Assembly (NCBI GenBank): GCA_965232015.1
Contig: OZ246946.1
Coordinates: forward strand, 245,562 to 309,561
Origin: Vicinamibacteria bacterium
GTDB lineage: Bacteria > Acidobacteriota > Vicinamibacteria > Marinacidobacterales > Marinacidobacteraceae
DNA: 64,000 nt
Direction: 5' to 3'
This document shows positions 11,290-62,435 of this stretch, piece after piece. Both the position numbers and the translations under genes were made by a program. A model generated the notes under the pieces. The model was not told the origin of the DNA, searched no databases, and worked only from the letters and a program-made list of their open reading frames with translations. Every line of letters starts with the position of its first letter. Position 1 is the first letter of the stretch.

Positions 11290-11540
11290 CCGCCTTGCCG
11301 GCGCGCCGGACTCCAGTCTCATGCCGGGCCCCCACCGGGAGAACTGGCGCCGGACTCCAGTCTCATGCCGGCGCGCCGGACTCCAGTCCGGCAATTTGTC
11401 GGCGCCGGCGCGCCGGCAGAGGAGTGCCGGCAGAGGAGCGCCGGCAGAGGAGCGCCGGCAGTGGCAGGCCGGCTTGGAATTGCCGGACTGGAGTCCGGCG
11501 CGCCGGCAGAGGCGCGCCGGCAGCGGAGCGCCGGCGCACC
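11290..11540. repeat. REP-like palindromic repeat cluster (about 8 units; core GCGCCGGACTCCAGTCCGGCAATT) in a divergent intergenic region
   Basis: Stem CCGGACT / AGTCCGG. Units occur in both orientations with degenerate copies. Translated ORFs here (PDWSPARRQ...) are spurious. Confidence 0.85.
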
Positions 11541-45620: not shown

Positions 45621-45808
45621 CGCCGGACTCCAGTCCGGCAATTTGCAGCCGGCGCTCCGCCCTCCAGTCCCCTGCCGGCGCGCCTTGCCGGCGCGCCGGA
45701 CTCCAGTCCGGCAATTTGCTGCCGGCGCTCCGCCCTCCAGTCCCTTGCCGGCGCGCCGGACTCCAGTCCGGCAATTTGCAGCCGGCGCTCCGCGCTGCCG
45801 GCGCGCCG
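45621..45808. repeat. REP-like repeat cluster (about 6 units)
   Basis: Repeated GCCGGACTCCAGTCCGGCAATTTGC units between convergent genes. Confidence 0.85.
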
Positions 45809-45838: not shown

Positions 45839-48631
45839 TCAGGTCACCGGTCTCACACCGCCCTTCCGGCCAAGACCGTATCCGACCCGAAACACGTCGG
45901 GGATGTCCACGCGACCGTCTCGGAGACGCCGGAACACCCCGATAGCCTCGAGATCCTCACGACGCCGGGCGCCTCGGCGACCGAGGCCCCTGGGCGGAAG
46001 CTCGGCTCCGCTGCCTTCCATCCGATCCGAGACCCCATCGGTGGCGTCCGTGGTCTGCCAGATCTGCTTGATGACGTCGAAGGCGCAGGGAACGACCGTC
46101 CCGGAGAGCGGACGGAGAAGGAGTTCCACCCACGGGTAATCCTCCCCGAGTTCCCGGATGCGAATCTTCGATGCTTCCCGGACTCCGCGCTTCACGCTCT
46201 CGTAATGCAGCGCGTACCGGTAATCCGGGTAGCGATCCGCCGTGTTGGCGGCCGCAGCTCGCAGCGCCTCGATGAACGATCGCGGGCTCACGTTGCCGTC
46301 GGCGTCTCCCAGGTGGTTCGGGATCCAGGTGTAGGGGAACCCCCGCCTCCGGTCCCGACCCATCCACGGTCCGGTGATCACCGAGTGAAACAGCTTCCGA
46401 CGGGTTTCTTCGTCGATCGCCGGGGACCGAAAATAGAGCTGGTTCCCGACTTCGGTGGCCTCCCAGCCGTCAGGCCCCAGCAGAGGGCGCAGCTCCTCTC
46501 CGCGGTCTCCGTTGCCGAGGTACTGCCATAGCATCCCGTAGAGGGCGTCCCGCGGCCAGGAGAGTTCCACGCTGGAATTGAGCACCTTGGACGCATCCGG
46601 GAAATCGGCTATGCACGACTCCTGCGCCTGATCGAGTCGGAGGAAGACCTTCGCGCGCAGCCTCCGGAAGGACCGCATATCGAGCGCGTGGCGAAGCAGG
46701 CCTCGGATCAAGTCGAGAACGGAGGGCCAGTCGTCAGCGCTGCGATCGAGCCCGTCGAACAGCAGCAGGGAGGTTCGGCCCCGCCGGTCGAACCGACCGT
46801 CGCAGTCACGAAACAGGCGGGCAACCCCTTCCGGATTCTCCTCCACATGCTTCACGCGCCGGGACCAGGAATCCAGGGCCTTCAGGGAGTGACCCGCCTC
46901 CGCGAGCTGGTGCGCATGCACGGTGCGCCAGATGTCTCGATGTCGTGAACCGGACGCGATGATGGTCCGAATCTCATCCGGTCCCGGGTAGAAGTTCGGC
47001 GCCTCGACGACACCGAACCCGGGTCCCACATCGGTTGGCGCCCCCGGAAACCGGCGCTGAGGCGAGTCGAGCGCCAGCAGCTTCCGGGTCGAGGCCTGCT
47101 GCAGCGCGCTCCACCAGAAGGTCTTGCCGGCCCCCCTCATCCCCGTCACGAGCAGGACATCGGGATCCAGCGCCTTGCGGTGAGCGGGCGACAGGTACAC
47201 ATGGGAGAGAGGCGGCGCGGCGCCGTGGCTCGTACCCTCCGGAAGATCGCGCAGGGCGGCGCGGGCGATCTCGGCATCGCGCGTCGCTGCGGAGGGCCTC
47301 CCTGTCTTGAGCTCAAACGTCGAGCCGACCGCGGATCCTCCGAACTCCCCCGCAGCGAGGCCACGGTGTTGCTGCCCGAAACGCTCGAGGAAGGGCGCGT
47401 AGGCCTGCATCACCACGGATTCACCGAGGCGTCGCAGCGGAGTTCCCCCGGCGAATCCGCGATTCCAGTGGATGACCAGCGGACTGTGGGGCGCATCCTC
47501 CTCCGCGACATCGTAGGAAACCGGATCGGCGGACGCGTCGCCGGCTCCTCCCAGCGTGTCGTAGAGACAGTCCCGAAAGAGGTCCCAGGCGTTCTCGCGG
47601 AAGCTCGCGAGGTATCGGTCGGTGGCGATGTTCGGCGTCAGGCCGGAGACGAGCGACAGACGCTCGCGAATCTTGGACGCGAGTCCCAGCACCCTCCAGT
47701 GCTCGAAGAGAACCCGGTAGCCGGTCCAGGTGGCTGGAGAATCCACGCCGAACAGCAGAACCTCGGCCCCGACATCCATCAGCGTTGCGGCTGCGATGTC
47801 GTGGAGGCCGCTTCGGCTCTCCAGGAGAACAACGGTCGGCCTGAGTCTGGTTTCCAGAGAATGGAGCATGCGCCGAAGCCGAAGAGTCCAGGGGTCCGAC
47901 GCGGTGTCCATATACACCCGCCCCAGCTTGGCGAGGTATTCCCCCGGGTCGCGCCCGTGCGCTGGTGCAACCCACACGTTTCCCGGCAGATCGCGGGCCC
48001 AGGCCGGACTCCCCACCATGTCCGGGAGCACGCGGTCCCCCTGTCCGACCAGTTCCTCCACGAACCAGTCAGCGACCCCGAAGTCGGGTCGGGCCCGCTC
48101 TTCGAACAGCGCCGGCGCAAGACCCGGAGACTCGAGGTCCAGATCCACGGCCAGGACATCCTCTCCCCGGCGCGCGAGGTGCCAGGCGAGAACCGCCACT
48201 GTCGTGCTCCGGCCGACGCCCCCCTTGATCGAGTAGAGCGTGTACCGGAGTGGTCGTCCGTCGGTGTCCTCCTCGCCGAGCGTCCACCAGCCCCTGCCTG
48301 CGGTGAGCCGGTCGGCCAGGACGACTCCCGGAGCGATCTCCTGGGCCGTGCTCTCGAGCGTGCCAAGCAACCCGGGATCGCTCCACAACAACACCCGCTC
48401 CGCAGGACGCCCGTGAGCCCCGAGCCGGCGGTGTACCTCGCGAGCCAGTCTCTCGAGGGCGCTCCGCAGACGATCGTCGCCGTCGAACTCTTCGGAGACC
48501 GAGATCCCGACCCTGCCGAACAGATCTCGCACCACGTAGATGCGGGGAACGCCGTTCGGGAGGTCCGCCGCCTCGAACGCCGCCTTGAGCTGGCCTCGCA
48601 GCTCGTCGAACGGCACGAAGGGGATGCTCAT
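45839..48631 (-). CDS. 930-aa double P-loop protein: N-terminal unknown domain, ParA/MinD-like domain with deviant Walker A (SIKGGVGRST), and C-terminal NACHT/STAND-like NTPase
   Basis: ParA-like YSIKGGVGRSTTVAVLAWHLARRGEDVLAVDLDLESPGL. Second P-loop VLLVTGMRGAGKTFWW with NACHT-type Walker B LLLFDGLDRSADD. ATG overlaps the stop of the upstream small gene (ATGA). Confidence 0.7.
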   Translation of the reverse strand: MSIPFVPFDELRGQLKAAFEAADLPNGVPRIYVVRDLFGRVGISVSEEFDGDDRLRSALERLAREVHRRLGAHGRPAERVLLWSDPGLLGTLESTAQEIAPGVVLADRLTAGRGWWTLGEEDTDGRPLRYTLYSIKGGVGRSTTVAVLAWHLARRGEDVLAVDLDLESPGLAPALFEERARPDFGVADWFVEELVGQGDRVLPDMVGSPAWARDLPGNVWVAPAHGRDPGEYLAKLGRVYMDTASDPWTLRLRRMLHSLETRLRPTVVLLESRSGLHDIAAATLMDVGAEVLLFGVDSPATWTGYRVLFEHWRVLGLASKIRERLSLVSGLTPNIATDRYLASFRENAWDLFRDCLYDTLGGAGDASADPVSYDVAEEDAPHSPLVIHWNRGFAGGTPLRRLGESVVMQAYAPFLERFGQQHRGLAAGEFGGSAVGSTFELKTGRPSAATRDAEIARAALRDLPEGTSHGAAPPLSHVYLSPAHRKALDPDVLLVTGMRGAGKTFWWSALQQASTRKLLALDSPQRRFPGAPTDVGPGFGVVEAPNFYPGPDEIRTIIASGSRHRDIWRTVHAHQLAEAGHSLKALDSWSRRVKHVEENPEGVARLFRDCDGRFDRRGRTSLLLFDGLDRSADDWPSVLDLIRGLLRHALDMRSFRRLRAKVFLRLDQAQESCIADFPDASKVLNSSVELSWPRDALYGMLWQYLGNGDRGEELRPLLGPDGWEATEVGNQLYFRSPAIDEETRRKLFHSVITGPWMGRDRRRGFPYTWIPNHLGDADGNVSPRSFIEALRAAAANTADRYPDYRYALHYESVKRGVREASKIRIRELGEDYPWVELLLRPLSGTVVPCAFDVIKQIWQTTDATDGVSDRMEGSGAELPPRGLGRRGARRREDLEAIGVFRRLRDGRVDIPDVFRVGYGLGRKGGVRPVT

Positions 48632-49046
48632 GGCATTCCGTCCTGTTCCATCAGCCGAACCATTTGACGGATATGGCGGGCTGCTCCCCGGTGTCTGTCC
48701 ACAGCCGCCCGGTCGGTATATCCGGTCCCGGAATACCGGTTGTGGTGCGACCAATCCGAGAAAGGGCTTGCGGGCGGGAGAGCTCGCACGTATGCGGCGG
48801 CTCTATGCTCGCTGAACCGCTTGAACTTCGCCCACAAGGCCTGGATGTGCTTGCGGTGGCGATGTTCCAGAGGATGACCGGAGGCGTTCAGGGGCATACC
48901 GTGCCTTGCCATGACCGCCTTGAGCCCGCATTCGGCGCTGAGGCCGAAGAGCTGGTCCGCATTTCCCCATCGCTGGCGGGCGTACAGCAGCTCGGCATCT
49001 TCCCAGTGCCTCCCTTGCGCCTCCGGGAAACTGGCTCTCAGATTCA
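48628..49046 (-). CDS. 139-aa hypothetical protein translationally coupled to the ParA-NACHT protein
   Basis: GTG start with GGAGGAG RBS. MNLRASFPEAQGRHWEDAELLYARQRWGNADQLFGLSAECGLKAV...EHRHRKHIQALW. No confident family assignment. The track ORF's N-terminal extension runs into a repeat and is spurious. Confidence 0.5.
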
Positions 49047-49113
49047 CGGATCGGGCTCCTCCTGCGGGTGCCGGGGCCAAGCGGCTACTCGCAACAGTAG
49101 CGCGGCCCTGCCC

Positions 49114-49180
49114 GCGCGCCGGACTCCGCCGGTTCTCCCGGCCAGTTCTCCCGGTGGGGGCGGGGCGGGGCCCGGCAATG
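49114..49180. repeat. variant REP / CCGGTTCTCCCGG-family repeat block
   Basis: CGCGCCGGACTCCGCCGGTTCTCCCGGCCAGTTCTCCCGGTGGGGG, preceded by hairpin GCTACTcgcaacAGTAGC. Confidence 0.6.
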
Positions 49181-49813: not shown

Positions 49814-51775
49814 ATGCATTTCTCTTGTTGTCGCATCCTCTTTCTTGTGGGTTCCGCAGGGATCGCAGCCGGCTTCGCAGCTTCCGGCTGCGCCGCGCCG
49901 GCCCCCCGGTTCGACGAGGCCCGGCTCCTCGAGCACATCTCGACGCTCTCCTCGGACGAATTCGGAGGCCGCGCCCCCGGCTCGCCCGGTGAGGAGAAAA
50001 CCGTCGAGTTTCTGACCCGCGGCTTCGCCGAGGCGGGGGTCGAGCCCGGCAACCCGGCGCTCGACGGCGCGGCGGCGTGGACCCAGCCGGTCCCGCTCGT
50101 CGGCTACGGCGCGACCACGATGGAGGCTTCCTCGGATCCGGGCGGCGGCTGGACCCCCGGCGAGGCGTTCGTCGCGTGGACGCGCCGCGACGAGCCGGTG
50201 ACGGAGGCGTCGGGCGAGCTGGTGTTCGCGGGCTACGGCGTTCAGGCCCCCGAATACGGCTGGGACGACTTCGGGGACGCCGACCTCGACGGCAAGATCA
50301 TCGTGGTCCTCGTGAACGACCCGCCCGGCGACCACCACTTCGGTGGCGACGCGATGACCTACTACGGCCGCTGGACCTACAAGTACGAGCAGGCGCTCGC
50401 CGCCGGAGCTCTCGGCGCGCTGATCGTCCACGAGACCGGCCCGGCGGGGTATCCGTGGGAAGTCGTCCAGGGCTCGTGGACCGGCCCCCAGTTCGATCTC
50501 CGCGCCCCGGCCGGGGACGATGCGCCCGAGCATCTCCCGGTCCAGGGCTGGATCCATCTCGACCTCGCGACCTCGCTCTTCGCGGCGGCAGGCGCGGATT
50601 TCGCCGAGGCGAAGGCGCGCGCCGCCGACGCCGGGTTCGTCCCCGAGCCGCTCGGCGTCACCGCCGAGTTTCGGATCGAGACCACCCGCACCGAGCTCGA
50701 ATCGAACAACGTGATCGCCCGGATCCCGGGAACCGAAGCGCCCGACGAGACGGTGATCTACACCGCCCACTGGGACCACCTCGGGACCGCCGAAGGCATG
50801 GAGGGCGACAACATCTTCAACGGCGCATTCGACAACGCCACCGGGACGGCGGGTCTCCTCGCCCTCGCCGAGGCGTTCATGGCGGAGGGCGCGCCGCGCC
50901 GCAGCATCGTCTTCCTCGCCGTGACGGCAGAGGAGCAGGGGCTCCTCGGCTCACGCCACTACGCGGACAACCCGCTCTACCCCCGGGCCGACACGGTGGC
51001 GGCGCTGAACATGGACGGTCTGAACGTGTGGGGCCCGACGTCCGACATCACCGTCGTCGGTCTCGGCCAGTCCGATCTCGACGACGTGGCCGCGGAGGTC
51101 GCCGCCGGGCTCGGACGCACGCTCAGCCCCGACCCGGAGCCGGAGAAGGGCTATTACTACCGCTCCGACCACTTCGAGTTCGCCCGGGTGGGGATCCCGG
51201 CGTTCTATCCGGACACCGGCACCGACTTCATCGGTCGCAGCCCCGACTACGGCATGGAGGTCCGCGACGCCTACGTGGCCGAGCGCTACCACAAGCCCGG
51301 TGACGAAGTGCTGCCCGAGTGGGATCTCGGCGGCATGGTGACGGATCTCGAGTTCCTCTACCGCATGGGCCGGAGGCTCGCGGAGGACGACGACTGGCCC
51401 GCCTGGTCTCCCACCAGCGAGTTCCGCGCCCGCCGCCGGCGCGCCGGACTCCAGTCCGGCACCGAGCGTCCCGGCCAACCGGCGCCTCCCTGCCGGAGCG
51501 CCGGACTCCAGTCCGGCACCGAGCGTCCCGGCCAACCGGCGCCTCCCCCCCGGAGCGCCGGACTCCAGTCCCTTGCCGGCGCGCCGGACTCCAGTCCGGC
51601 AATTCCACGCCGGCGCACGCTGCGGGAGCGCCGGACTCCAGTCAGGCACCGGTCAAGAGGGTTGCGTGCCGGACTGGAGTCCGGCGCTCCAGGGCGCTCC
51701 ATCGCGACCGCGTCGGGGCGGCAGGATTTGAACCTGCGACCCCCTGATCCCGAACCAGGTGCTCTGCCAGACTGA
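49814..51775 (+). CDS. M28-family peptidase (PA domain + M28 aminopeptidase), lipoprotein
   Basis: Lipobox AASGC. Motifs HWDHLG, NGAFDNATG, FLAVTAEEQGLLGS, RSDHFEF. The 3' end has no in-frame stop until 51773, reading through the REP cluster into tRNA-Pro, so the true C-terminus is uncertain. Confidence 0.7.
   Translation: MHFSCCRILFLVGSAGIAAGFAASGCAAPAPRFDEARLLEHISTLSSDEFGGRAPGSPGEEKTVEFLTRGFAEAGVEPGNPALDGAAAWTQPVPLVGYGATTMEASSDPGGGWTPGEAFVAWTRRDEPVTEASGELVFAGYGVQAPEYGWDDFGDADLDGKIIVVLVNDPPGDHHFGGDAMTYYGRWTYKYEQALAAGALGALIVHETGPAGYPWEVVQGSWTGPQFDLRAPAGDDAPEHLPVQGWIHLDLATSLFAAAGADFAEAKARAADAGFVPEPLGVTAEFRIETTRTELESNNVIARIPGTEAPDETVIYTAHWDHLGTAEGMEGDNIFNGAFDNATGTAGLLALAEAFMAEGAPRRSIVFLAVTAEEQGLLGSRHYADNPLYPRADTVAALNMDGLNVWGPTSDITVVGLGQSDLDDVAAEVAAGLGRTLSPDPEPEKGYYYRSDHFEFARVGIPAFYPDTGTDFIGRSPDYGMEVRDAYVAERYHKPGDEVLPEWDLGGMVTDLEFLYRMGRRLAEDDDWPAWSPTSEFRARRRRAGLQSGTERPGQPAPPCRSAGLQSGTERPGQPAPPPRSAGLQSLAGAPDSSPAIPRRRTLRERRTPVRHRSRGLRAGLESGAPGRSIATASGRQDLNLRPPDPEPGALPD
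51431..51690. repeat. REP-like repeat cluster (about 7 units, both orientations)
   Basis: Repeated GCGCCGGACTCCAGTCCGGCACCGAGCGTCCCGGCCAACCGGCGCCTCCC superunits. Confidence 0.85.
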
Positions 51776-51786
51776 GCCACGCCCCG
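51713..51786 (-). tRNA. tRNA-Pro (anticodon CGG)
   Basis: Reverse complement CGGGGCGTGGCTCAGTCTGGCAGAGCACCTGGTTCGGGATCAGGGGGTCGCAGGTTCAAATCCTGCCGCCCCGA. Anticodon loop TTCGGGA is identical to E. coli tRNA-Pro(CGG). Confidence 0.85.
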
Positions 51787-51879: not shown

Positions 51880-52758
51880 TCAGCGGGACAGCCAGCGGAA
51901 GATGACTCTCGTCGCCTCCGCCAGCCCGGCGCCCAGACCGATCAGGGCGGCGCGCCGCCACCAGTCGGCGCGCTTCCTCCGGCGTGTCTCGCGCGCCATG
52001 ACAAGGGCCTCCAGCCGGTCGAAGCGGCGGAGGAGCTCCTGGATGCCTTCACGCAGCTCCGCCCGTTCGGCGCGAGCCTCGGCGAAGCCCTTTTCCCGCT
52101 CGGCGCGAGCCTCGGTGAAGCCCTTTTCGCGCTCGGCGCGAGCCTCGGCGAAGCCCTTCTCGCGCTCGGCGCGAGCCTCGGCGAAGCCCTTCTCGCGCTC
52201 GGCGCGAGCCTCGGCGAACCCGTCCTCCATGTCGGTTCGCGTCTTGGCGTCGGTCCTCTGGAGGTCGGACTTCGCTTCCGAGATGCGGTCAGCGAGCCGC
52301 TTCTCCATTGCCTCGCGCTCAGCGCGGGCCTCGGCGAAGCCCTTGTCCCGAGCAGCGCGGGCCTCGGCGAAGCCGCGCGCCACATCCGATCGGGTCTGGG
52401 CGTCGGACCTCTCGAGATCAGCCTTGGTCTCCGAGATGCGCTCGGTCAGCCGCTTCTCCGTCTCGTGTCGGTCCGCCCGGGCCTCCTCGCGCTGGTCGCG
52501 CGCCATGCGGACGGCGAGACCGAGGAATCCGCTCTCGGTGACGGGCGCCTCCGTCGGCCGGCCGGGCGGCGGAGCAGGCGGAGATGCGCCTGGATGCTCG
52601 GCGCCAGCCACCTTCGGCGACATGGACGACGAACTGGAGGGGCTCATGCGGGTCGCGCGCCTCGCGGGCGACGCGGATTCAGTGTAGGCCGTCTCCGAAG
52701 AGCCCGCAACCGATCCGGACGCCGGGGCGGCGCCAGGAGGTGCTTCTCGATGCTTCAT
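51880..52758 (-). CDS. coiled-coil protein with five 11-residue tandem repeats (KGFAEARAERE) and a C-terminal TM anchor
   Basis: 33-bp DNA tandem repeats at 52069-52230. C-terminus WWRRAALIGLGAGLAEATRVIFRWL. S/P-rich N-terminus. Start could be the internal M at 52506. Confidence 0.55.
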   Translation of the reverse strand: MKHREAPPGAAPASGSVAGSSETAYTESASPARRATRMSPSSSSSMSPKVAGAEHPGASPPAPPPGRPTEAPVTESGFLGLAVRMARDQREEARADRHETEKRLTERISETKADLERSDAQTRSDVARGFAEARAARDKGFAEARAEREAMEKRLADRISEAKSDLQRTDAKTRTDMEDGFAEARAEREKGFAEARAEREKGFAEARAEREKGFTEARAEREKGFAEARAERAELREGIQELLRRFDRLEALVMARETRRRKRADWWRRAALIGLGAGLAEATRVIFRWLSR

Positions 52759-53097
52759 GCTTTCTTCTTCTGGCGGGTCTTGGCGGGGTCAAGATCGGGA
52801 GCCGGACCGGACGCGCCCGCCTCCCGGAAAGAGAGACGGAGGACCGCGGCGTCCCAACCATCGGCCCCGCCAGACCGACGCACCATGGCCTGGAACCCGC
52901 CGATCGAAGCCCGGAGAGGGGCCGGGCCAACCCCCCGAAATCCATGCTTGACATCCCCGCCCGTACTGTGTTGAAGTAAACGCCCGTGCTCGCACTCCGG
53001 CAGTCGTCCCCTTGGATGTACTACCCCGGCGCGAGCCAACTCCTTCTACTGGTTCCCGCCATGCGCAGCATCAAGCCGTCTCCCGACGTTTTGACCT

Positions 53098-53125
53098 TGC
53101 CCCCCGAAGCCTTCCTGCCTATACT
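53098..53125 (+). promoter_or_regulatory. candidate sigma70-like promoter (TTGCCC -16- TATACT) in a low-GC patch upstream of the first FN3 lipoprotein gene
   Basis: The region 52930-53200 is conspicuously AT-richer than the genome. Confidence 0.3.
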
Positions 53126-53296
53126 TTCTCGGCAGTTGGCCCGTGGGCTGTGTGCGCACCGGGCCGCCCCGTCCTACGGGAGGTAGAAATGATTTTCACG
53201 AGACGGCGCCTTGCCCTCTCCGGATCCCCACCGGGATCTTCGGACCAGGCTGCAGACGCGGTCCTGTCCATCAACGCCCTACAGGAGGTAGGCGAA

Positions 53297-55900
53297 ATGA
53301 CGCAGTTCACGAGGAAGTCGGTCCCCCGCGGGCTGACCCTCCTCCTTGCCCTGTTCCTGGGTGCCGGTCTCGTGCTCTCGGGATGCGGTGAGGACGAAAC
53401 CCCCGCCCCGGCGCCGGCTCCGGCCCCTGCGCCACCCCCTGCCCCCGAGCCTGAGCCCGAACCGGAACCCGAGCCAGAGCCCGAGCCGCCCGCTACGCCT
53501 ACCGGCCTCATGGTTTCGGAGACCACCGAAACCTCCATCACCTGGACCTGGGACGCCGTCGAAGGCGCGATCGGTTACGCAGTGCAGGCCAGCGCGGATC
53601 AGGTGTTCGACGACTCGGACATGATCCACCCTGCGGCCGAGACCACCTTCACCGCTGCGGACCTCGAGCCGGGCACCACCATGTCGGTCCGCGTGGCCGC
53701 CGCGGGAGCGCTCGACGGGTCGCTGAACAGCGCGTGGACGACCCACATCACCGCCACGTCGGCGGTGCCTCCTCCGGTGGTGATTCCGGTCCCGAGCGGC
53801 TTCATGGCCGAGGGTGGAGACGGCTCCATCACGTGGAGCTGGGACGCCGTTGAGGGCGCCGACGGGTATGCGATCCAGGTCAGCTCGGACGAGATGTTCG
53901 ATGACATGGACGCGACGACCTACACGATGGAGACCTCGCACACCGTCGAGGATCTCGGTTACTCCGAGAGCAGGTTCGCGCGAGTTGCGTCCACTGCTGG
54001 TGAGGGCGACGACATGATGATGAGCATGTGGAGCACCCACATGACGGGCATGTCGGCCGCCGCAGCTCCCCTGCCTCCGCCTTCCGTGACGTTCTCCCTG
54101 CCGGACGGTCAGAGCCACTTCATGGTCGCGGACGACGACGATGACGAGGCCACGGCCATGGCTTGGATCAACCCCAAGACCGTCGTGGAGTCGGACTCCA
54201 CCGCGATCATCACTCCGATGTTCGTGGACGGCGCCAACGGGGTCCATGTGGGCGCCAGTGACGACAACATGCCGTTCACCTACGTGGGAGCCGAGGACAA
54301 CTGGGAAATGCTCCAGAGCGCCGTGCTCGACGGTGGCGCGACCTTCATGGTCCAGCGGACCACGATGGGCGCCAACCAGGAGATGGAGCCGAGCAACGAT
54401 GTGTCCTACTACACCTGCGGTCCGTTCGAGTGCGCGGAGGGAGAGGACGCCCCGGATCTTTCGATCGCCAACTCCAAGGCCTGCACGGCTTGGGATCCGA
54501 TGGTGGAGATCCAGGTCGGCAAGGTGGACAACGACGTCATCGTTCCCGATGACGGTGAGGAAACCGCGGACGGCTTGAACACGAACGACGGTATCGACTT
54601 GGGCATCGTCACCAGCTCCAGTCTCGAGATGAATGTCAAGAGCGTCTTTTCTGGTGTTGAGGGAGGCACGAACACCTCTTCCACCGTTGAGGCCGCGAGC
54701 GGCAGCAACAAGACCCTCGAAGTGACGGCCGTCAACGGGGTGATCCGGATCGATGGAGACAACCTGGACACCGATGCCGACGAGGAGGACTACGTGGTCT
54801 GCGACAACGACTACACATTGGAAAATGTGAGCAGTAAGGCAGACCGGCCTGTGGGCTGCTTCCGGCTGATCGGTCCCGGCGCCATGGGCAGGGACGCTGC
54901 CAAGGGCCCTGACTACTTGTCCGGCTGGAGCATCGAGCTGAGTCCCGTGGACGGCGACGTGACTTGGGGCAACGTTGACTGGGAGGACGATCCGTTCGAG
55001 GATCTCGAGTGCGGCGCCGCCGATCCGATCATGGTGGCCGACCATGTGGATGTCTGCTCCATGTTCGAGGCCGAGGTGGATGGCGCCACCGCCCGGGGCT
55101 GGACCCCTGAAGTGGTGTTCGACGGGACGAGCAATCAGGTCACCATGTGGCGCGCCAGCACCCGCGCTGCCACTGACCACGAGGCGATGTTCAAGACGCT
55201 CTGGTTCGACGACAATCTGAATGGCAAGATCAAGAATGACGGGACCCTTGCCCGCGCACGCCCCGCGCCTGCGGATGGGGCTACTGCCAACGCCATGCAC
55301 GATCTCTACGATCAGAATGAGAACGATGGGAACCTTGAGGTGATCTGGGAGCACCTGACCGACTCCGATGGGGACCTGATCAGCGCCGTGGGCGACCTCG
55401 GCAAGGCTGACCTTCTGAGCGACTCGGACAACAAGAGTACTGTCGACGATGAGCGCACGATTTTGGTGGAGACGTGCACCGGAGACGGGGCGACTTGGAC
55501 GCCGGCAAGTTACACCGGTACCGACCCCAGTGCCGGTTGTGTCGGGGGTACCTACAACACCACCGGCGACTTGGCGATCAAGACCAACCCGGACGGCAAC
55601 GCGGACAACTATGTCGATACTGCCCCCTCGGTCGTCTTCTCTGACTTCCGCGGATGCAGCGAGGATGACGGCGGCGACGATGCCGACGGTTCCGAATGCG
55701 ATGCGACGTGGGTCCACGATGTCACGATTCTGTTCGCGGACGGCACGTTCGGCTGCAGCACGACTCGAGATGTGACCATCACGTGCGAGTGGGACGCTGA
55801 CGGCGGAATGGCCCAGGGCCGTAACGCTCTGCCGAACAGCTTTGACGGAGAGGGCGATGACAGCAATCTCGACAACTTCCTCAAGTGCACCGCCAACTAG
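53297..55900 (+). CDS. secreted lipoprotein with (PE)n linker, two FN3-like domains and a large acidic C-terminal domain
   Basis: Signal/lipobox LLLALFLGAGLVLSGC. AGGAGG RBS. PAPAPAPAPPPAPEPEPEPEPEPEP linker. FN3 pattern PTGLMVSETTETSITWTWDAVEGAIGYAVQ. About 60% GC. An in-frame upstream ATG at 53189 (MIFTRRR...) also has an RBS. Confidence 0.7.
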   Translation: MTQFTRKSVPRGLTLLLALFLGAGLVLSGCGEDETPAPAPAPAPAPPPAPEPEPEPEPEPEPEPPATPTGLMVSETTETSITWTWDAVEGAIGYAVQASADQVFDDSDMIHPAAETTFTAADLEPGTTMSVRVAAAGALDGSLNSAWTTHITATSAVPPPVVIPVPSGFMAEGGDGSITWSWDAVEGADGYAIQVSSDEMFDDMDATTYTMETSHTVEDLGYSESRFARVASTAGEGDDMMMSMWSTHMTGMSAAAAPLPPPSVTFSLPDGQSHFMVADDDDDEATAMAWINPKTVVESDSTAIITPMFVDGANGVHVGASDDNMPFTYVGAEDNWEMLQSAVLDGGATFMVQRTTMGANQEMEPSNDVSYYTCGPFECAEGEDAPDLSIANSKACTAWDPMVEIQVGKVDNDVIVPDDGEETADGLNTNDGIDLGIVTSSSLEMNVKSVFSGVEGGTNTSSTVEAASGSNKTLEVTAVNGVIRIDGDNLDTDADEEDYVVCDNDYTLENVSSKADRPVGCFRLIGPGAMGRDAAKGPDYLSGWSIELSPVDGDVTWGNVDWEDDPFEDLECGAADPIMVADHVDVCSMFEAEVDGATARGWTPEVVFDGTSNQVTMWRASTRAATDHEAMFKTLWFDDNLNGKIKNDGTLARARPAPADGATANAMHDLYDQNENDGNLEVIWEHLTDSDGDLISAVGDLGKADLLSDSDNKSTVDDERTILVETCTGDGATWTPASYTGTDPSAGCVGGTYNTTGDLAIKTNPDGNADNYVDTAPSVVFSDFRGCSEDDGGDDADGSECDATWVHDVTILFADGTFGCSTTRDVTITCEWDADGGMAQGRNALPNSFDGEGDDSNLDNFLKCTAN

Positions 55901-56600: not shown

Positions 56601-56879
56601 GGGCTGGGCCGCGCAGAGAGAGGTCAGTTGGGTCCCCGTTAGCGAACGGTTGCGCGCCGGCCGGCGGCGCTGCGAGCCCCTGATAGGCTAGACGCCAAGG
56701 CATGGGGGAACCGCCCGACGGGTTGGTCCTCGCATGTCGCCGCAGGGGCCAGAGCGATCGGCCGCCCGCGATGACCGGTAGCGGGCCGCGGGCTGAGTGT
56801 GGTACCATGCGGCTGATAGATGTGTCCTGACATGCGCGGGCAGAGCCTGCGCCGCAACACCGGCCGGGAGGTAGGTGAC

Positions 56880-59447
56880 ATGAAGTCGCTCACAGGCAAG
56901 TTTTCGTCCGTCCGCGGATGGGCTTTGCTGCTGATCCTGTTCCTCGGCGCGGGCCTCATGATGGCGGCCTGCGGGGATGACGAACCGGCGACCACTCCGG
57001 TGCCGGCTCCGGCCCCCGAGCCCGAGCCCGAGCCCGAGCCCGATCCGCCGGCTGTGCCGACTGGCCTCCGCATCGCCGCCATCGGTCAGGACTTCATCGA
57101 GTGGATCTGGACGCCGGTGGGGAACGTGAGCGGCTACGACGTGCAATACAGCGTCAACGAGGTGTTCACCGACGAGGACGAGATCATCGCCCGGACGGCC
57201 GAGCAGGTCACCTACCGCCGGGAGGGCCTCGAACCGGAGGCTAGCGGGTCGGTGCGGGTGCGGTCCGCCGCCGGAACCGGCGACGATCGGATCACGAGCG
57301 GCTGGTCCACCCACGTGACCGGGATGGCGATGGCCGTTCCGGTGGCGCCCCCGACTCCGACCGGCCTCGCGGTTTCGGCGACGGAGACTTCGATCACCTG
57401 GACCTGGACCGCCGCCCCGGGAGCGGAGGGCTACGTGGTGCAGATCAGCGAGGATGAGGTGTTCGAGACGATGTTCGAGGGGGCGGACCACTACGCGGTG
57501 ACCCGCGAGACGTCCCACACGATCGCCGGGCTGGAGGCGGAGACGACCCGGTATGCGCGGGTGGCGGCCGGGGTGCTGACGGGCGCGGTTCCTTCGCTGG
57601 ATCCGGGCGACTACCTGCTCAGCGCGTGGACGATCCACGCGACGGGGATGACGGAGGCGGCGGCGCCGGAGAGGCCGCCAGCCCCGGCGAACGTGCGGCT
57701 GAGGATGCGGGGCTCCGACTACCTCGAGTGGACGTGGGACGCGGTCGAGGGGGCGAGCGGCTACCAGAGCCAGTTCAGCGCCAGTTCGACCTTCCCGAGC
57801 GGGCAGGCGGGCAGCGAGATCCACCAGGGGATGGCCAGCACCACCCGCCGGGTCGCGAACCTGGACGCGGAATCGGACGGCCACCTCCGGGTGCGGACTT
57901 ACACGGGGACTCTGACCGAGCCGACCTACGGGGACTGGAGCGACGGCCATCGGGCGACGACCGCCGAGCCGCCGCCAGCGGTGGCGCTCGACGCTCCCGA
58001 GGGCCTGCGGGGCTCGGCCGAGACTGCGACTTCGATCACGCTCACGTGGGACGAGGTGGACGATGCCGACGCCTACGAGGTGCGGCAGCGGGAGCCTGGC
58101 GGCGCGTGGTCTGACGCGAGCTGCGGATCGGCGACCGCGGACAACGAGGTTGCCGACGAGGAATGCGTCGCGAGCGGCCTGGACTCGGGCACCGACTACG
58201 ACTTCGGGGTTCGGGCGCTCCCGGCGAACAACGACAGGGCGCACAACGCCAGCACGTGGAGCGACACGCTGGAGTCGAGCACGACCGGCACCTCCACCAC
58301 GACCCCACCCCCAACCACCTCCGGCGGCGAGAGCGGACCGCTCAACATCAGTTGGGACAGCAGCGGCGGAACGATCACCTGGTATTGGGACCAGGCCGCA
58401 GACCGAACCTCCGACTACGAGAGATGGAAGTCTGCAGCGTCTGCGGACGGCGTGGATGCCGCCATAAAGTGTCCCGCAGCCAGCGCCGCCGTTTGGGCCG
58501 CCGGCGGCGGGACTCGCACCCTGGACGGAGACACGCGGGAGCCCCAGGAGGCTGCCACGCCTGGCAGCGCGTACCTCCTGTGCGTTCGGTCCGTCAAGGA
58601 AAACACGCGGAGCGCGGTCTCCTACGCCTGGGCGATCGTCCCTACCGACATCACGGGCGGCGAGCCCAGCGCAGAATCCAGACAGGTGACGACCGCCATC
58701 AGCTTTGGCATCACTCTCGATCCGGGCTTCACCTACCAGCTTCGCCGCGTTTCCACGAGCGTCAACGACGATACCTTCGACGCGCGCGACTGCAGCGGTG
58801 GCACGGCGCTCCGCGATGAGGTCAGCGATTTCCCGAGTCTCCCACTGGGGTCCTACGAGGTGGGAGCCCTGTCTCCATACACTCGCTATGGGCTGTGCTA
58901 TCGCGCCACAAACGACGCCGGCGCCTCGGAGTGGCAGTTCACGGAGAACGGCGTCCTGACTCTTCCTGGCCGGCCGAGCGCACCTGTCGCGGCGGTCAGT
59001 TCCATCGCGCATGATGCGACGTCCCGCGATGCCGTGTGGAACGTGGCGACTAGCGGAAACGCCCGGGTGCCGCGGGCTCACGAGGCATACGACGTCAAAG
59101 TGATCTCGATGCGCTCAGCCAACCCCTACGTCAGCGGTGACACCGGCCCGAGGAGCCCTGACCTGTCGCTAGCGGATTGTGAAGCCACCTCGGCGCGCAC
59201 GAATACGACATCCGAAGACGTTGCGCCGGGAGATCGGAGCAACAATCAGAGGGGATTCACCGTGACACACGATGTGGAGGGGCCCGCAACGCCAACGGCA
59301 GAGGAGCCGAACATGGACCAGGACTACCGGGTCTGCGTTCGCGCTCACCTGGGCGGCGGCACGCACCAGGGGGCCGCCGACGCGCGAAAGGGCCCGTGGG
59401 TCCTTGGTTCGCTCGTCGTGAAGAGGGACGCTCCTGCGTCGAACTAG
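56880..59447 (+). CDS. secreted lipoprotein with (PE)n linker and about six FN3-like domains; paralog of 53297..55900
   Basis: MKSLTGKFSSVRGWALLLILFLGAGLMMAAC lipobox. RBS GGGAGG. Repeated PTGL...SITWTW... FN3 modules. Confidence 0.7.
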   Translation: MKSLTGKFSSVRGWALLLILFLGAGLMMAACGDDEPATTPVPAPAPEPEPEPEPDPPAVPTGLRIAAIGQDFIEWIWTPVGNVSGYDVQYSVNEVFTDEDEIIARTAEQVTYRREGLEPEASGSVRVRSAAGTGDDRITSGWSTHVTGMAMAVPVAPPTPTGLAVSATETSITWTWTAAPGAEGYVVQISEDEVFETMFEGADHYAVTRETSHTIAGLEAETTRYARVAAGVLTGAVPSLDPGDYLLSAWTIHATGMTEAAAPERPPAPANVRLRMRGSDYLEWTWDAVEGASGYQSQFSASSTFPSGQAGSEIHQGMASTTRRVANLDAESDGHLRVRTYTGTLTEPTYGDWSDGHRATTAEPPPAVALDAPEGLRGSAETATSITLTWDEVDDADAYEVRQREPGGAWSDASCGSATADNEVADEECVASGLDSGTDYDFGVRALPANNDRAHNASTWSDTLESSTTGTSTTTPPPTTSGGESGPLNISWDSSGGTITWYWDQAADRTSDYERWKSAASADGVDAAIKCPAASAAVWAAGGGTRTLDGDTREPQEAATPGSAYLLCVRSVKENTRSAVSYAWAIVPTDITGGEPSAESRQVTTAISFGITLDPGFTYQLRRVSTSVNDDTFDARDCSGGTALRDEVSDFPSLPLGSYEVGALSPYTRYGLCYRATNDAGASEWQFTENGVLTLPGRPSAPVAAVSSIAHDATSRDAVWNVATSGNARVPRAHEAYDVKVISMRSANPYVSGDTGPRSPDLSLADCEATSARTNTTSEDVAPGDRSNNQRGFTVTHDVEGPATPTAEEPNMDQDYRVCVRAHLGGGTHQGAADARKGPWVLGSLVVKRDAPASN

Positions 59448-60143: not shown

Positions 60144-62435
60144 CTACTCGGTCTTCTGTCTGATTTCCGAAGAGTCGCTGATGACCCAAGGACCGGCGCG
60201 CCAACCGCCTTCAGCCTTTACTCGAACACACAGCTGCACCCTCCGGTCGTCAAGGTCCGGATCGTCAAGCTCAGGGCGTGCGAATTCGCCGGACTCGACT
60301 GTGATTCCTTGCGGGTTGTCCGTCGCAGAAATCAGGGCGCTCTCGCTCGGGTCGAATCCCGGAGTGCTAAGGGTACCCGCGCTGCACGCAGCCTGTACAT
60401 CCCTGGAGGGAACGCTCGTAACAGTCCTGAGTGCGGTACCGGTATCGCTGTCGTGATCGTACTTTTCGCGATAGCTGAGAGTTCTCGCGTCGAACTCAGC
60501 GCCATTCCTCGGGACATCCCGCCTACTGCGGACGGGCAGCGTCCACACTACCTTGCTCGCGGTGTCGTGATCCAGTGTCGTTCTCGAACTGTCCACGACA
60601 GGCCTCGGCGGGGCGGCTGGAAGAGTAGTGACCTGGCCTGTAGTTGCCACCCACGATGTCTGCCCTTTGGCGTTGTGGTACCGCATGCAGAGGGAGTACC
60701 TCGTGAAAGATTGAAGACCTTGGCTGAAGGGGACGTCAACATCTACCAGTGGGACGTCTGTGTCGCCCTGAGCAACGACCGCTCCCGAGGCACACGCACT
60801 CCCCAACTCGCTCGCACTTGCCGGGACGTTGTCGCGTCCGGGTGTGGCTATCGTGCGGAGGTCATAGTTGAAACCGCCCGCGATATTCGCAACAGTCCAT
60901 TGAACCGATGTGGTTCGACTTCCGTCCTCCCGGTCAGTGAAGGTGCCGGCAGCGGGGAGGGCCGGAGTCGTAATCGCCCACGCGAACGAAACATCATCCT
61001 CTTCGTCGTGTGGCCTCACGCACAGCAAACGAGTGTTTCCCGGCTCCAAACTCAGGCTAGTCAAAGTGTGAGAGGTCTGTGCGGAGTTGTATCCGGCCGT
61101 GTTGGCGTCTGCTGGCCAGGTCACCGCGGTACCGGTACAGGGGTTTGAGGAGTCGCTATAGGTGGTTGCAGTAGAGACTACGAAGTCATACCGCCCCTCT
61201 CCAACACGATCCCAGATCCAAGTGATGCTAGTGGCCGTACTCTCCCAACGGACGTTCAGGTTTCCGGAGCCGCCGCCGGTGGTCGGGGGTGGAGTGGTCG
61301 TGGAGGTGCCGGTGGTGCGCGACTCCAGCGTGTCGCTCCACGCGCTGGCGTTGTGCGCCCTGTCGTTGTTCGCCGGGAGCGCCCGAACCCCGAAGTCGTA
61401 GTCGGTGCCCGAGTCCAGGCCGCTGGCCACGCATTCCTCGTCGGCAACCTCGTTGTCCGCGGTCGCCGATCCGCAGCTCGCGTCAGACCACGCGCCGCCA
61501 GGCTCCCGCTGCCGCACCTCGTAGGTGTCGGCATCGTCCACCTCGTCCCAGGTGAGCGTGATCGAAGTCGCAGTCTCGGCGGAGCCCCGCAGTCCCTCGG
61601 GAGCACCGAGCGCCACCGCTGGCGGCGGCTCGGCGGTCGTCGCCCGATGGCCGTCGCTCCAGTCCCCGTAGGTCGGCTCGGTCAGAGTCCCCGTGTAAGT
61701 CCGCACCCGGAGGTGGCCCTCCGATTCCGCGTCCAGGTTCGCGACCCGGCGGGTGGTGCTGGCCATCCCCTGGTGGATCTCGCTGCCCGCCTGCCCGCTC
61801 GGGAAGGTCGAACTGGCGCTGAACTGGCTCTGGTAGCCGCTCGCCCCCTCGACCGCGTCCCACGTCCACTCGAGGAAGTCGGAGCCCCGCGTCCTCAGCC
61901 GGACGTTCGCCGGGGCTGGCGGCCTCTCCGGCGCCGCCGCCTCCGTCATCCCCGTCGCGTGGATCGTCCACGCGCTGAGCAGGTAGTCGCCCGGATCCAG
62001 CGAAGGAACCGCGCCCGTCAGCACCCCGGCCGCCACCCGCGCATACCGGGTCGTCTCCGCCTCCAGCCCGGCGATCGTGTGGGACGTCTCGCGGGTCACC
62101 GCGTAGTGGTCCGCCCCCTCGAACATCGTCTCGAACACCTCATCTTCGCTGATCTGCACCACGTAGCCCTGCGCTCCCGGGGCCGCGGTCCAGGTCCAGG
62201 TGATCGAAGTCTCCGTCGCCGAGACCGCGAGGCCGGTGGGAGTCGGGGGCGCCACCGGAACGGCCATCGCCATCCCGGTCACATGGGTGGACCAGTCGCT
62301 CGTGATCCGATCGTCGTCGGTTCCGGCGGCGGACCGCACCCGCACCGACCCGCTAGCCTCCGGTTCGAGGCCCTCCCGGCGGTAGGTGACCTGCTCGGCC
62401 GTCCGGGCGATGATCTCGTCCTCGTCGGTGAACAC
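60144..62435 (-). pseudogene. 5'-truncated inverted paralog of the FN3 lipoprotein at 56880..59447 (no signal peptide, lacks first FN3); break-point at a REP element
   Basis: The first 480 residues are near-identical at the DNA level to 57135-58315. Homology ends exactly at the REP unit at 62468. The remaining C-terminus is divergent but FN3-like. Only a GTG start and no signal peptide. Confidence 0.55.

Follow-up and report, generated by a model that had tools for sequence, protein, structure and literature searches.

A 64-kb window of Vicinamibacteria DNA (the whole stretch that was analysed) carries a minus-strand module of two genes, the first (gene A) encoding a small protein and the second a large protein in which two P-loop parts, B and C, follow one another. 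Profile matches identify this operon as a fused-gene version of PDC-M28, a candidate phage defence system already catalogued in PADLOC. We interpret the locus as a horizontally acquired copy of this candidate anti-phage system with its second and third genes fused, and an ATP-controlled HEPN abortive-infection module is, in our judgment, its most likely function, a reading that we hold with moderate confidence. The operon is probably immune-related and has the standing of a candidate. A preliminary description of this DNA had proposed a two-gene module with a candidate role in conflict or defence. The module is far from a chance pairing of open reading frames (ORFs), as each protein is matched by profiles over its full length and has hundreds of homologues. 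The candidate role is backed by homologues that lie inside DISARM operons and by some that adjoin ThsB-like TIR or restriction genes.

Profiles from PADLOC-DB, Pfam, and NCBIfam were run against both proteins. The PDC-M28A profile (PDLC04558) matches the small protein at 1.7e-42 over residues 4-138 of 139. The large protein is covered by two profiles in succession, PDC-M28B (PDLC04559; 2.1e-125; residues 6-420, profile positions 3-430 of 438) and PDC-M28C (PDLC04561; 1.3e-155; residues 453-929, profile positions 6-479 of 480). All three families of PDC-M28 are thus matched full length, with the same gene order, strand, and coupling. These end-to-end matches overturn the proposal that the system was undescribed and that its small protein had no recognisable family: the latter belongs to PDC-M28A and has a predicted HEPN fold. 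PDC-M28 is one of 145 experimentally unvalidated "phage defence candidates," which were detected through their location inside BREX, DISARM, or type I restriction-modification loci, and the supplement lists it as cassette CAS_00115, three families in a row, with the remark "Assign as candidate PDC-M28" (Payne et al. 2024, bioRxiv 10.1101/2024.01.29.577857). The window copy differs in two respects: B and C form one 930-aa polypeptide here but are two genes in the catalogued system, and the copy sits outside BREX, DISARM, and restriction-modification systems. The GC content at third codon positions (GC3) is 0.71 in A and 0.80 in the fused BC gene compared with 0.92 in the flanking housekeeping genes, with a local GC dip at the module, which suggests that the 3.2-kb module is a horizontally acquired insertion.

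The gene order of PDC-M28 is widely conserved. A forms 120 clusters at 90% identity and 1139 representatives at 50% identity (E ≤ 1e-3), nearly all of which are standalone proteins of ~140 aa. In a scan of one genome per species, 152 genomes were found to encode A, and the best 80 loci were analysed. These come from Gemmatimonadota, Acidobacteriota (Vicinamibacterales and Bryobacterales), Binatia, Latescibacterota, Alpha-, Gamma-, and Deltaproteobacteria, Bacteroidota/Rhodothermales, Spirochaetia, Chloroflexota, Cyanobium, Planctomycetota, and Synergistota. Apart from loci truncated at the end of a contig, practically all have the order A-B-C on one strand, and the A/B junction is a 4-nt overlap of the ATGA type in 58 of 65 loci. 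The translational coupling seen in the window sequence is therefore kept across homologous loci, as is the pairing of the large gene with its small partner, both of which had been proposed from the window.

The B-C fusion is a different matter. Of the 73 complete loci, 63 encode B and C as separate ORFs and 10 as one fused ORF; in the protein database, 63 of the 75 matches to the large protein are full-length fused homologues. The fused loci are mostly from Longimicrobiales/Palauibacter (Gemmatimonadota) and Rhodothermales and are also the closest relatives of the window protein, a distribution that is consistent with one main fusion event. The poorly conserved linker between the two parts falls where the B stop and the C start lie in split relatives. 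Among the split loci, a start codon in the C frame is found 4 nt inside the end of B in 30 of 46, a count that is biased upward because the start nearest that position was chosen. Read from these loci, the "double NTPase" is a lineage-specific fusion of two neighbouring genes, and the earlier remark that its two P-loop modules are not normally fused misses that they are products of adjacent genes in most relatives. The natural fusion argues that B and C act together as one complex.

One contig from a metagenome-assembled genome (MAG), JAJEAO010000101.1 (L002:4684-15029), departs from the A-B-C arrangement, with tandem A-B pairs beside a HATPase-type restriction enzyme. The order is HATPase-type REase_II, a frameshifted B, A, B, a 333-aa NucS_C/PDC-S11-like nuclease, a partial A, B, and a 647-aa protein of unknown type. 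In one of these pairs, the NucS-like nuclease matching PDC-S11 stands in the place of C, and a like arrangement occurs at the end of locus L001. This finding points to A-B as a core whose third component can be exchanged; the L002 arrangement could also be a MAG assembly artefact.

A is predicted to have a clear four-helix HEPN fold. Its confident alignment-based AlphaFold model (predicted local distance difference test score, pLDDT, 90.7) contains four main helices and two short ones. In an alignment of 59 A-family members, R13, H14, D17, E19, R26, N29, D31, S37, E39, C40, K43, H67, R104, Y105, and H119 are near-invariant polar residues. The canonical Rx4-6H endoribonuclease motif is absent: no Arg/His pair 4-6 residues apart is conserved among the 59 members, and R113-x5-H119 of the window protein is not conserved in the family. 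Because of this absence, the RNase activity of A is uncertain. The small protein had been set down as not HEPN, which is right for the motif and wrong for the modelled fold. The last residue of the EHRHRKH patch of A is the conserved H67, and the patch lies in the loop that precedes helix 3. Pfam HEPN_AbiV (PF18728) scores 17 bits against A, below its cutoff of 27.1, and gives weak matches in 33 of the 59 family members. Searches of PDB sequences with the A family found no HEPN chain and returned chance matches to cyclophilin (one, with the family profile) and cellobiose 2-epimerase (with two single members). An A-family HEPN protein of Candidatus Accumulibacter (P0183) carries the NCBI label "SAM-dependent methyltransferase," which is probably a misannotation.

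The closest point of comparison for A is AbiV, a proven HEPN RNase toxin whose validated RNHKSKH motif sits in a flexible loop after the third helix and in whose family the spacing and conservation of the Arg/His pair vary, according to the authors (bioRxiv 10.1101/2024.05.05.592566). A shares the HEPN fold with AbiV, which belongs to a type III toxin-antitoxin abortive-infection system of Lactococcus. RNHKSKH and the His-rich patch of A occupy roughly the same topological position, as judged from secondary-structure prediction and from the description in the AbiV paper and without a residue-level alignment. In a different view, A would be a non-catalytic adaptor or a nucleotide- or RNA-binding sensor, and the effector activity would reside in the ATPases, which might, for example, deplete ATP, recruit other nucleases, or bind DNA or form filaments through the ParA-like part. 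We regard a non-catalytic A as rather unlikely. A diverged active site would be compatible with the near-invariant R13, H14, H67, R104, and H119, Arg/His spacing varies within the AbiV family too, and the L002 case is a single MAG contig with tandem copies and a frameshift.

The window itself lends no support to a role in defence, but the neighbours of the homologues do. In ~10 of the 80 loci, either a gene for a protein of 1300-1575 aa (DrmMI) ends exactly at the start of A or one for a protein of ~1150 aa (DrmA) begins just past C. The order in these DISARM-embedded loci, about one in eight, is DrmD-DrmMI-[ABC]-DrmA-DrmB. When the two nearest genes per side were considered for 28 sampled loci, DrmMI was present in 4 and a ThsB-like TIR protein in 3. 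The TIR protein (PADLOC ThsB, 6e-63; also matching PDC-M50B) is directly downstream of fused BC in three loci (L003:13547-14194, L009:13674-14204, and L010:13608-14117), and another is found near a DISARM-embedded copy (L014:6118-6561).

In addition, 27 plasmids carry the system, among them conjugative ones from Enterobacter bugandensis and Burkholderia glumae, on which its genes are annotated as hypothetical protein, AAA family ATPase, and hypothetical protein. Three-gene operons are found at 137389-140719 of NZ_CP039454.1 (L081:6153-9483; E. bugandensis, IncF, pSurvcare220) and at 80364-83559 of NZ_CP100135.1 (L082:5586-8781; B. glumae). The operons on these plasmids adjoin an integrase and GNAT/DUF1778 toxin-antitoxin pairs, a setting that would also suit a toxin-antitoxin or addiction module serving to stabilise plasmids and islands, with A as the toxin, the ATPases as antitoxin or regulator, and defence as an incidental effect. 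HEPN proteins are common as toxin-antitoxin toxins (AbiV and HEPN-MNT, for example), and the solitary, horizontally acquired copy in the window fits such a module as well. Embedding on the same strand between DISARM genes, however, fits immunity better, and two large conserved NTPases would be atypical antitoxins. Near the operon, Rfam recovers nothing besides tRNA-Pro, and RNA antitoxin-like repeats of the ToxI or abiV2 kind were not found. We therefore consider an addiction module unlikely as the primary function, although one module could combine toxin-antitoxin function with abortive-infection defence. An AbiV-like type III toxin-antitoxin system was likewise considered and rejected, as PF18728 stays below its cutoff and neither an Rfam match nor an antitoxin-like tandem repeat is present near the operon.

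The C part is predicted to be an AAA+ ATPase from the neighbourhood that holds ORC/Cdc6, BrxC, and STAND proteins. The confident model of residues 441-930 (pLDDT 87.2, predicted template modelling score 0.88) has an AAA+ core fold and ends in a helical region. Foldseek searches with this model return, best first, archaeal Cdc6/ORC (4e-5 to 2e-4), BrxC (6e-4), RdrA, and Dark. The best-ranked structural neighbours are Cdc6/ORC, the archaeal ATPase SSO1545, and BrxC, with NLR and Avs proteins ranking lower. At E ≤ 1, Pfam finds no NACHT or NB-ARC family in the large protein and shows AAA_16 alone in their stead (20.6 bits, cutoff 32.6); NCBIfam NF047389, "Sll1717 family P-loop ATPase," gives a sub-threshold 59.5 bits over residues 584-833 (cutoff 75); and profiles for BrxC, DUF499, and Cdc6 in Pfam, NCBIfam, and PADLOC give no match to C. 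A KAP NTPase, the NCBI label on one plasmid homologue, was rejected because there is no KAP_NTPase match in Pfam at E ≤ 1.

C had been described as a STAND/NACHT-like NTPase followed by a short sensor-like tail. An intact P-loop NTPase in that neighbourhood is indeed present, but NACHT or STAND membership is not demonstrable, as no such profile matches and Cdc6/ORC and BrxC rank higher among the structural neighbours; "NACHT-like" overstates the evidence, and "unrelated to STAND" would understate it. A sensor tail of the repeat type is absent: Pfam detects no TPR, LRR, or WD40 repeat family and leaves the last 190 aa of C unmatched, and the model shows only a helical C-terminal region. At only ~480 aa and with neither a NACHT/NB-ARC profile nor a repeat sensor, C differs from the STAND NTPases Avs, bNACHT, and NLR. 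It is improbable that the module is an undescribed sensor of the Avs/bNACHT class with a ParA-like N-terminal module and a partner of no family.

The nearest conceptual precedent lies with BrxC, an ORC/Cdc6-clade ATPase according to a comparative analysis, in which BrxC-like DUF499 ATPases are described as often fused to HEPN endoribonucleases and proposed as triggers of abortive responses in BREX-related systems (PMC12839542). Compared with these HEPN-DUF499/BrxC systems (PMC12839542), the HEPN protein is encoded by a separate gene here, there is an extra ParA-like KGGVGR protein, and no BrxC or DUF499 profile matches. Unlike BREX-related systems, the PDC-M28 module has no methyltransferase, PglZ, or helicase.

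The B part belongs to a curated family of variant P-loop ATPases. NCBIfam NF047398, "KGGVGR-motif variant AAA ATPase" (AAA_KGGVGR), matches residues 128-313 with 167.2 bits against a cutoff of 90, and a fused RefSeq homologue from Candidatus Palauibacter (WP_420463148.1) is already labelled KGGVGR; a literature search for "KGGVGR" and "Sll1717" returned no relevant paper. The pattern KGG[VMT]GR[ST] is present in 75 of 81 B homologues and the GK version in none. As the Arg at the P-loop position is kept family-wide, it is a fixed trait rather than a sign of decay. A ParA/MinD-like N-terminal module with a Lys-to-Arg Walker A had been proposed, and profiles and conservation alike bear this out. 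The substituted residue had been taken for the signature lysine, which is in fact retained as K136; the canonical P-loop lysine is the one replaced, by R141. In common with ParA/MinD (SIMIBI) proteins, B has the signature lysine of KGG, the DxD of Walker A', and a P-loop domain of the same overall kind; it differs from them in the Arg that takes the place of the GK[ST] lysine and in its extra N- and C-terminal regions (residues 1-125 and 314-420). Pfam has no match over residues 1-125 or 314-440. Only around the P-loop does the sequence of B resemble ParA, MinD, Mrp, BcsQ, and ArsA, and a PDB search with a sequence profile of the large protein recovers only ParA/MinD/Mrp P-loops, with no match to C. 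By comparison with P-loop enzymes in general, we infer that B binds nucleotide with slow or altered hydrolysis and behaves like a switch. A 1026-aa protein, P0074, combines a RAMP domain (PF03787), a ParA-like P-loop, and TPR and gives a weak match to the P-loop region of B.

The ParA/MinD-like sequence of B, the Cdc6/ORC proteins at the top of the Foldseek list for C, and the presence of the module on plasmids could together bring to mind maintenance of a mobile element, with a ParA-like segregation ATPase and an ORC/Cdc6-like replication initiator. Such a role is highly improbable. A true ParA/MinD ATPase was rejected for B, since the ParA and MinD equivalogs score 20-22 bits against cutoffs of 180-213 and the canonical GK[ST] lysine is absent. 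A ParB/centromere or MinE/MinC partner was not found near the module, the window holds no ParB, centromere-like repeat, or integrase, and the repeats that it does hold are genome-wide palindromes. Moreover, the module is found inside DISARM operons or alone between chromosomal housekeeping genes, and the plasmids that carry it have their own RepA.

Returning to the reading of PDC-M28 as an ATP-controlled HEPN abortive-infection module, we can outline how its parts might work together. B and C would form an ATP-dependent sensor and switch complex, which the fusion in the window would tie to a 1:1 ratio. C, as the active ATPase, might recognise a phage protein or foreign nucleic acid in the manner of BrxC-like and Cdc6-like ATPases whose tails are helical or winged-helix, and B might serve as a slow or non-hydrolysing nucleotide-dependent dimerisation switch. 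Upon infection, the complex would release or activate the HEPN protein A, which would then cleave or bind RNA, possibly rRNA as with AbiV, and growth would stop. Inside DISARM, the module could act as a second line of defence. We put forward only tentatively a stronger version of this proposal, in which PDC-M28 would be a mechanistically new abortive-infection system that places a HEPN protein without Rx4-6H under two different P-loop switches, the ParA-like B with its invariable Arg and the ORC/Cdc6-BrxC-like C. Its A-B pair would be a portable core that accepts an AAA+ ATPase or a nuclease as third component, and DISARM loci would recruit the module as a backup layer.

Several observations weigh against the abortive-infection reading, the missing Rx4-6H motif of A among them. 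DISARM embedding covers a minority of loci. The window copy stands alone among housekeeping genes (aconitase, CoaX, and GatB), and PADLOC profiles find no match in its ten flanking ORFs, so Drm genes are not adjacent here. A literature search on PDC-M28 found nothing beyond the candidate list and no phage test of any member. Finally, no relative of A was found in the viral contigs of IMG/VR, a result that neither supports nor excludes defence.

What the analysis adds is structural identity for the parts of PDC-M28, namely a predicted HEPN-fold protein, a ParA-like putative switch with Arg for Lys, and a predicted BrxC/Cdc6-like AAA+ ATPase. It also traces the conserved A-B-C operon through many phyla and independently confirms its embedding in DISARM in some genomes. 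The locus in the window represents a catalogued candidate with a fused sub-architecture, not a new class. If the system is active, it would be a further example of HEPN effectors under ORC/Cdc6-type ATPases and would assign a function to the KGGVGR ATPase family, which is curated but so far unexplained. Cultured Enterobacter and Burkholderia carry copies on conjugative plasmids, which provide direct test material.

Features of the PDC-M28 module and its borders, in window coordinates
Feature	Position	Strand	Remarks
Gene A (PDC-M28A)	48628..49047	minus	139-aa protein with predicted HEPN fold; GTG start
Large gene	45839..48631	minus	930 aa; ATG start; in-frame fusion of PDC-M28B and PDC-M28C
ATGA stop/start overlap of gene A and large gene	48628..48631	minus	Seen in the sequence; translational coupling
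B part, residues 1-420	47372..48631	minus	N-terminal ~125 aa, ParA/MinD-like variant P-loop domain, C-terminal extension; Pfam CbiA above cutoff
ParA/MinD-like variant P-loop domain, residues 128-313	47693-48250	minus	NF047398 above cutoff
Deviant Walker A KGGVGRST, residues 136-143	48203..48226	minus	K136 signature lysine kept; R141 for canonical P-loop lysine
ParA-type Walker A'/switch motif DLDLESPG	48122..48145	minus	Kept in 78/81 B homologues
Linker, ~32 aa	47276..47371	minus	Poorly conserved (conservation profile); gap between PADLOC B end (420) and C start (453)
C part, residues 453-930	45842..47275	minus	Predicted AAA+ ATPase, then helical C-terminal region
Walker A GMRGAGKT, residues 497-504	47120..47143	minus	GxxGxGK[ST] in 71/71 homologues
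Walker B LLLFDGLD, residues 622-629	46745..46768	minus	hhhxDxhD in 69/71 homologues
REP cluster, three copies of GCCGGACTCCAGTCCGGC	45622..45772		Between the convergent 3' ends of aconitase and large gene
Degenerate REP remnant, 25 nt, 76% match	49107..49131		Within the 157-nt region upstream of gene A

The two ORFs are co-directional and head to tail, with gene A first. The GTG start of gene A sits 7 nt past a GGAGGAG Shine-Dalgarno sequence; the preliminary description placed the end of the module at 49046, a value that is out of frame by 1 nt. The motifs that it quoted for the large protein (KGGVGRST, GMRGAGKT, and LLLFDGLD) are all located there. An upstream TTG would extend the large ORF to 971 aa and was dismissed because homologues start at the same methionine as the 930-aa protein. 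The large gene and aconitase are convergent, with their 3' ends facing, and the other neighbours in the window are a DUF4013 protein, pantothenate kinase (CoaX), GatB, a peptidase, and tRNA-Pro. Outside the window, a paralogue of A with 71% identity is on record (P0077), and the source genome may hold a second copy of the system elsewhere.

Repetitive extragenic palindromic (REP) clusters had been reported on both sides of the module. This is accurate for the 3' side, where three copies are present, but on the side of gene A there is a single 76% remnant. The palindrome GCCGGACTCCAGTCCGGC occurs at ~16 sites across the window (0.03 expected by chance), for example at 11375, 21079, 29386, 45622-45772, 51443-51685, and 62478, and is frequently clustered with periods of 57-73 nt. 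It is 2.4 kb from the module to the next true cluster (51443-51685), which is found beside tRNA-Pro and past membrane-protein and peptidase genes. The palindrome was found in none of the 82 related loci fetched. REPs are ordinary genome-wide context and lie outside the system. The cluster at 45622-45772 possibly serves as a transcript end; a promoter/terminator consensus scan found no intrinsic-terminator consensus in it. A larger island (45.6-51.7 kb), bounded by REP clusters and tRNA-Pro, was rejected because the membrane-protein and peptidase genes that it would enclose show the native GC3 of 0.92.

Two further features were observed beyond the module. A 292-aa ORF at 51880-52758 on the minus strand, which adjoins tRNA-Pro (51712-51786) and has no match in Pfam or PADLOC, consists mostly of 33-nt (11-aa) tandem repeats (EKGFAEARAER...). 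Past it are three large fn3/DUF4992 proteins that look paralogous (53012-55900 and 56820-59447 on the plus strand and 60144-62435 on the minus strand); they give no defence-profile match, and their stretch is lower in GC, at 0.60-0.66 between 54 and 56 kb.

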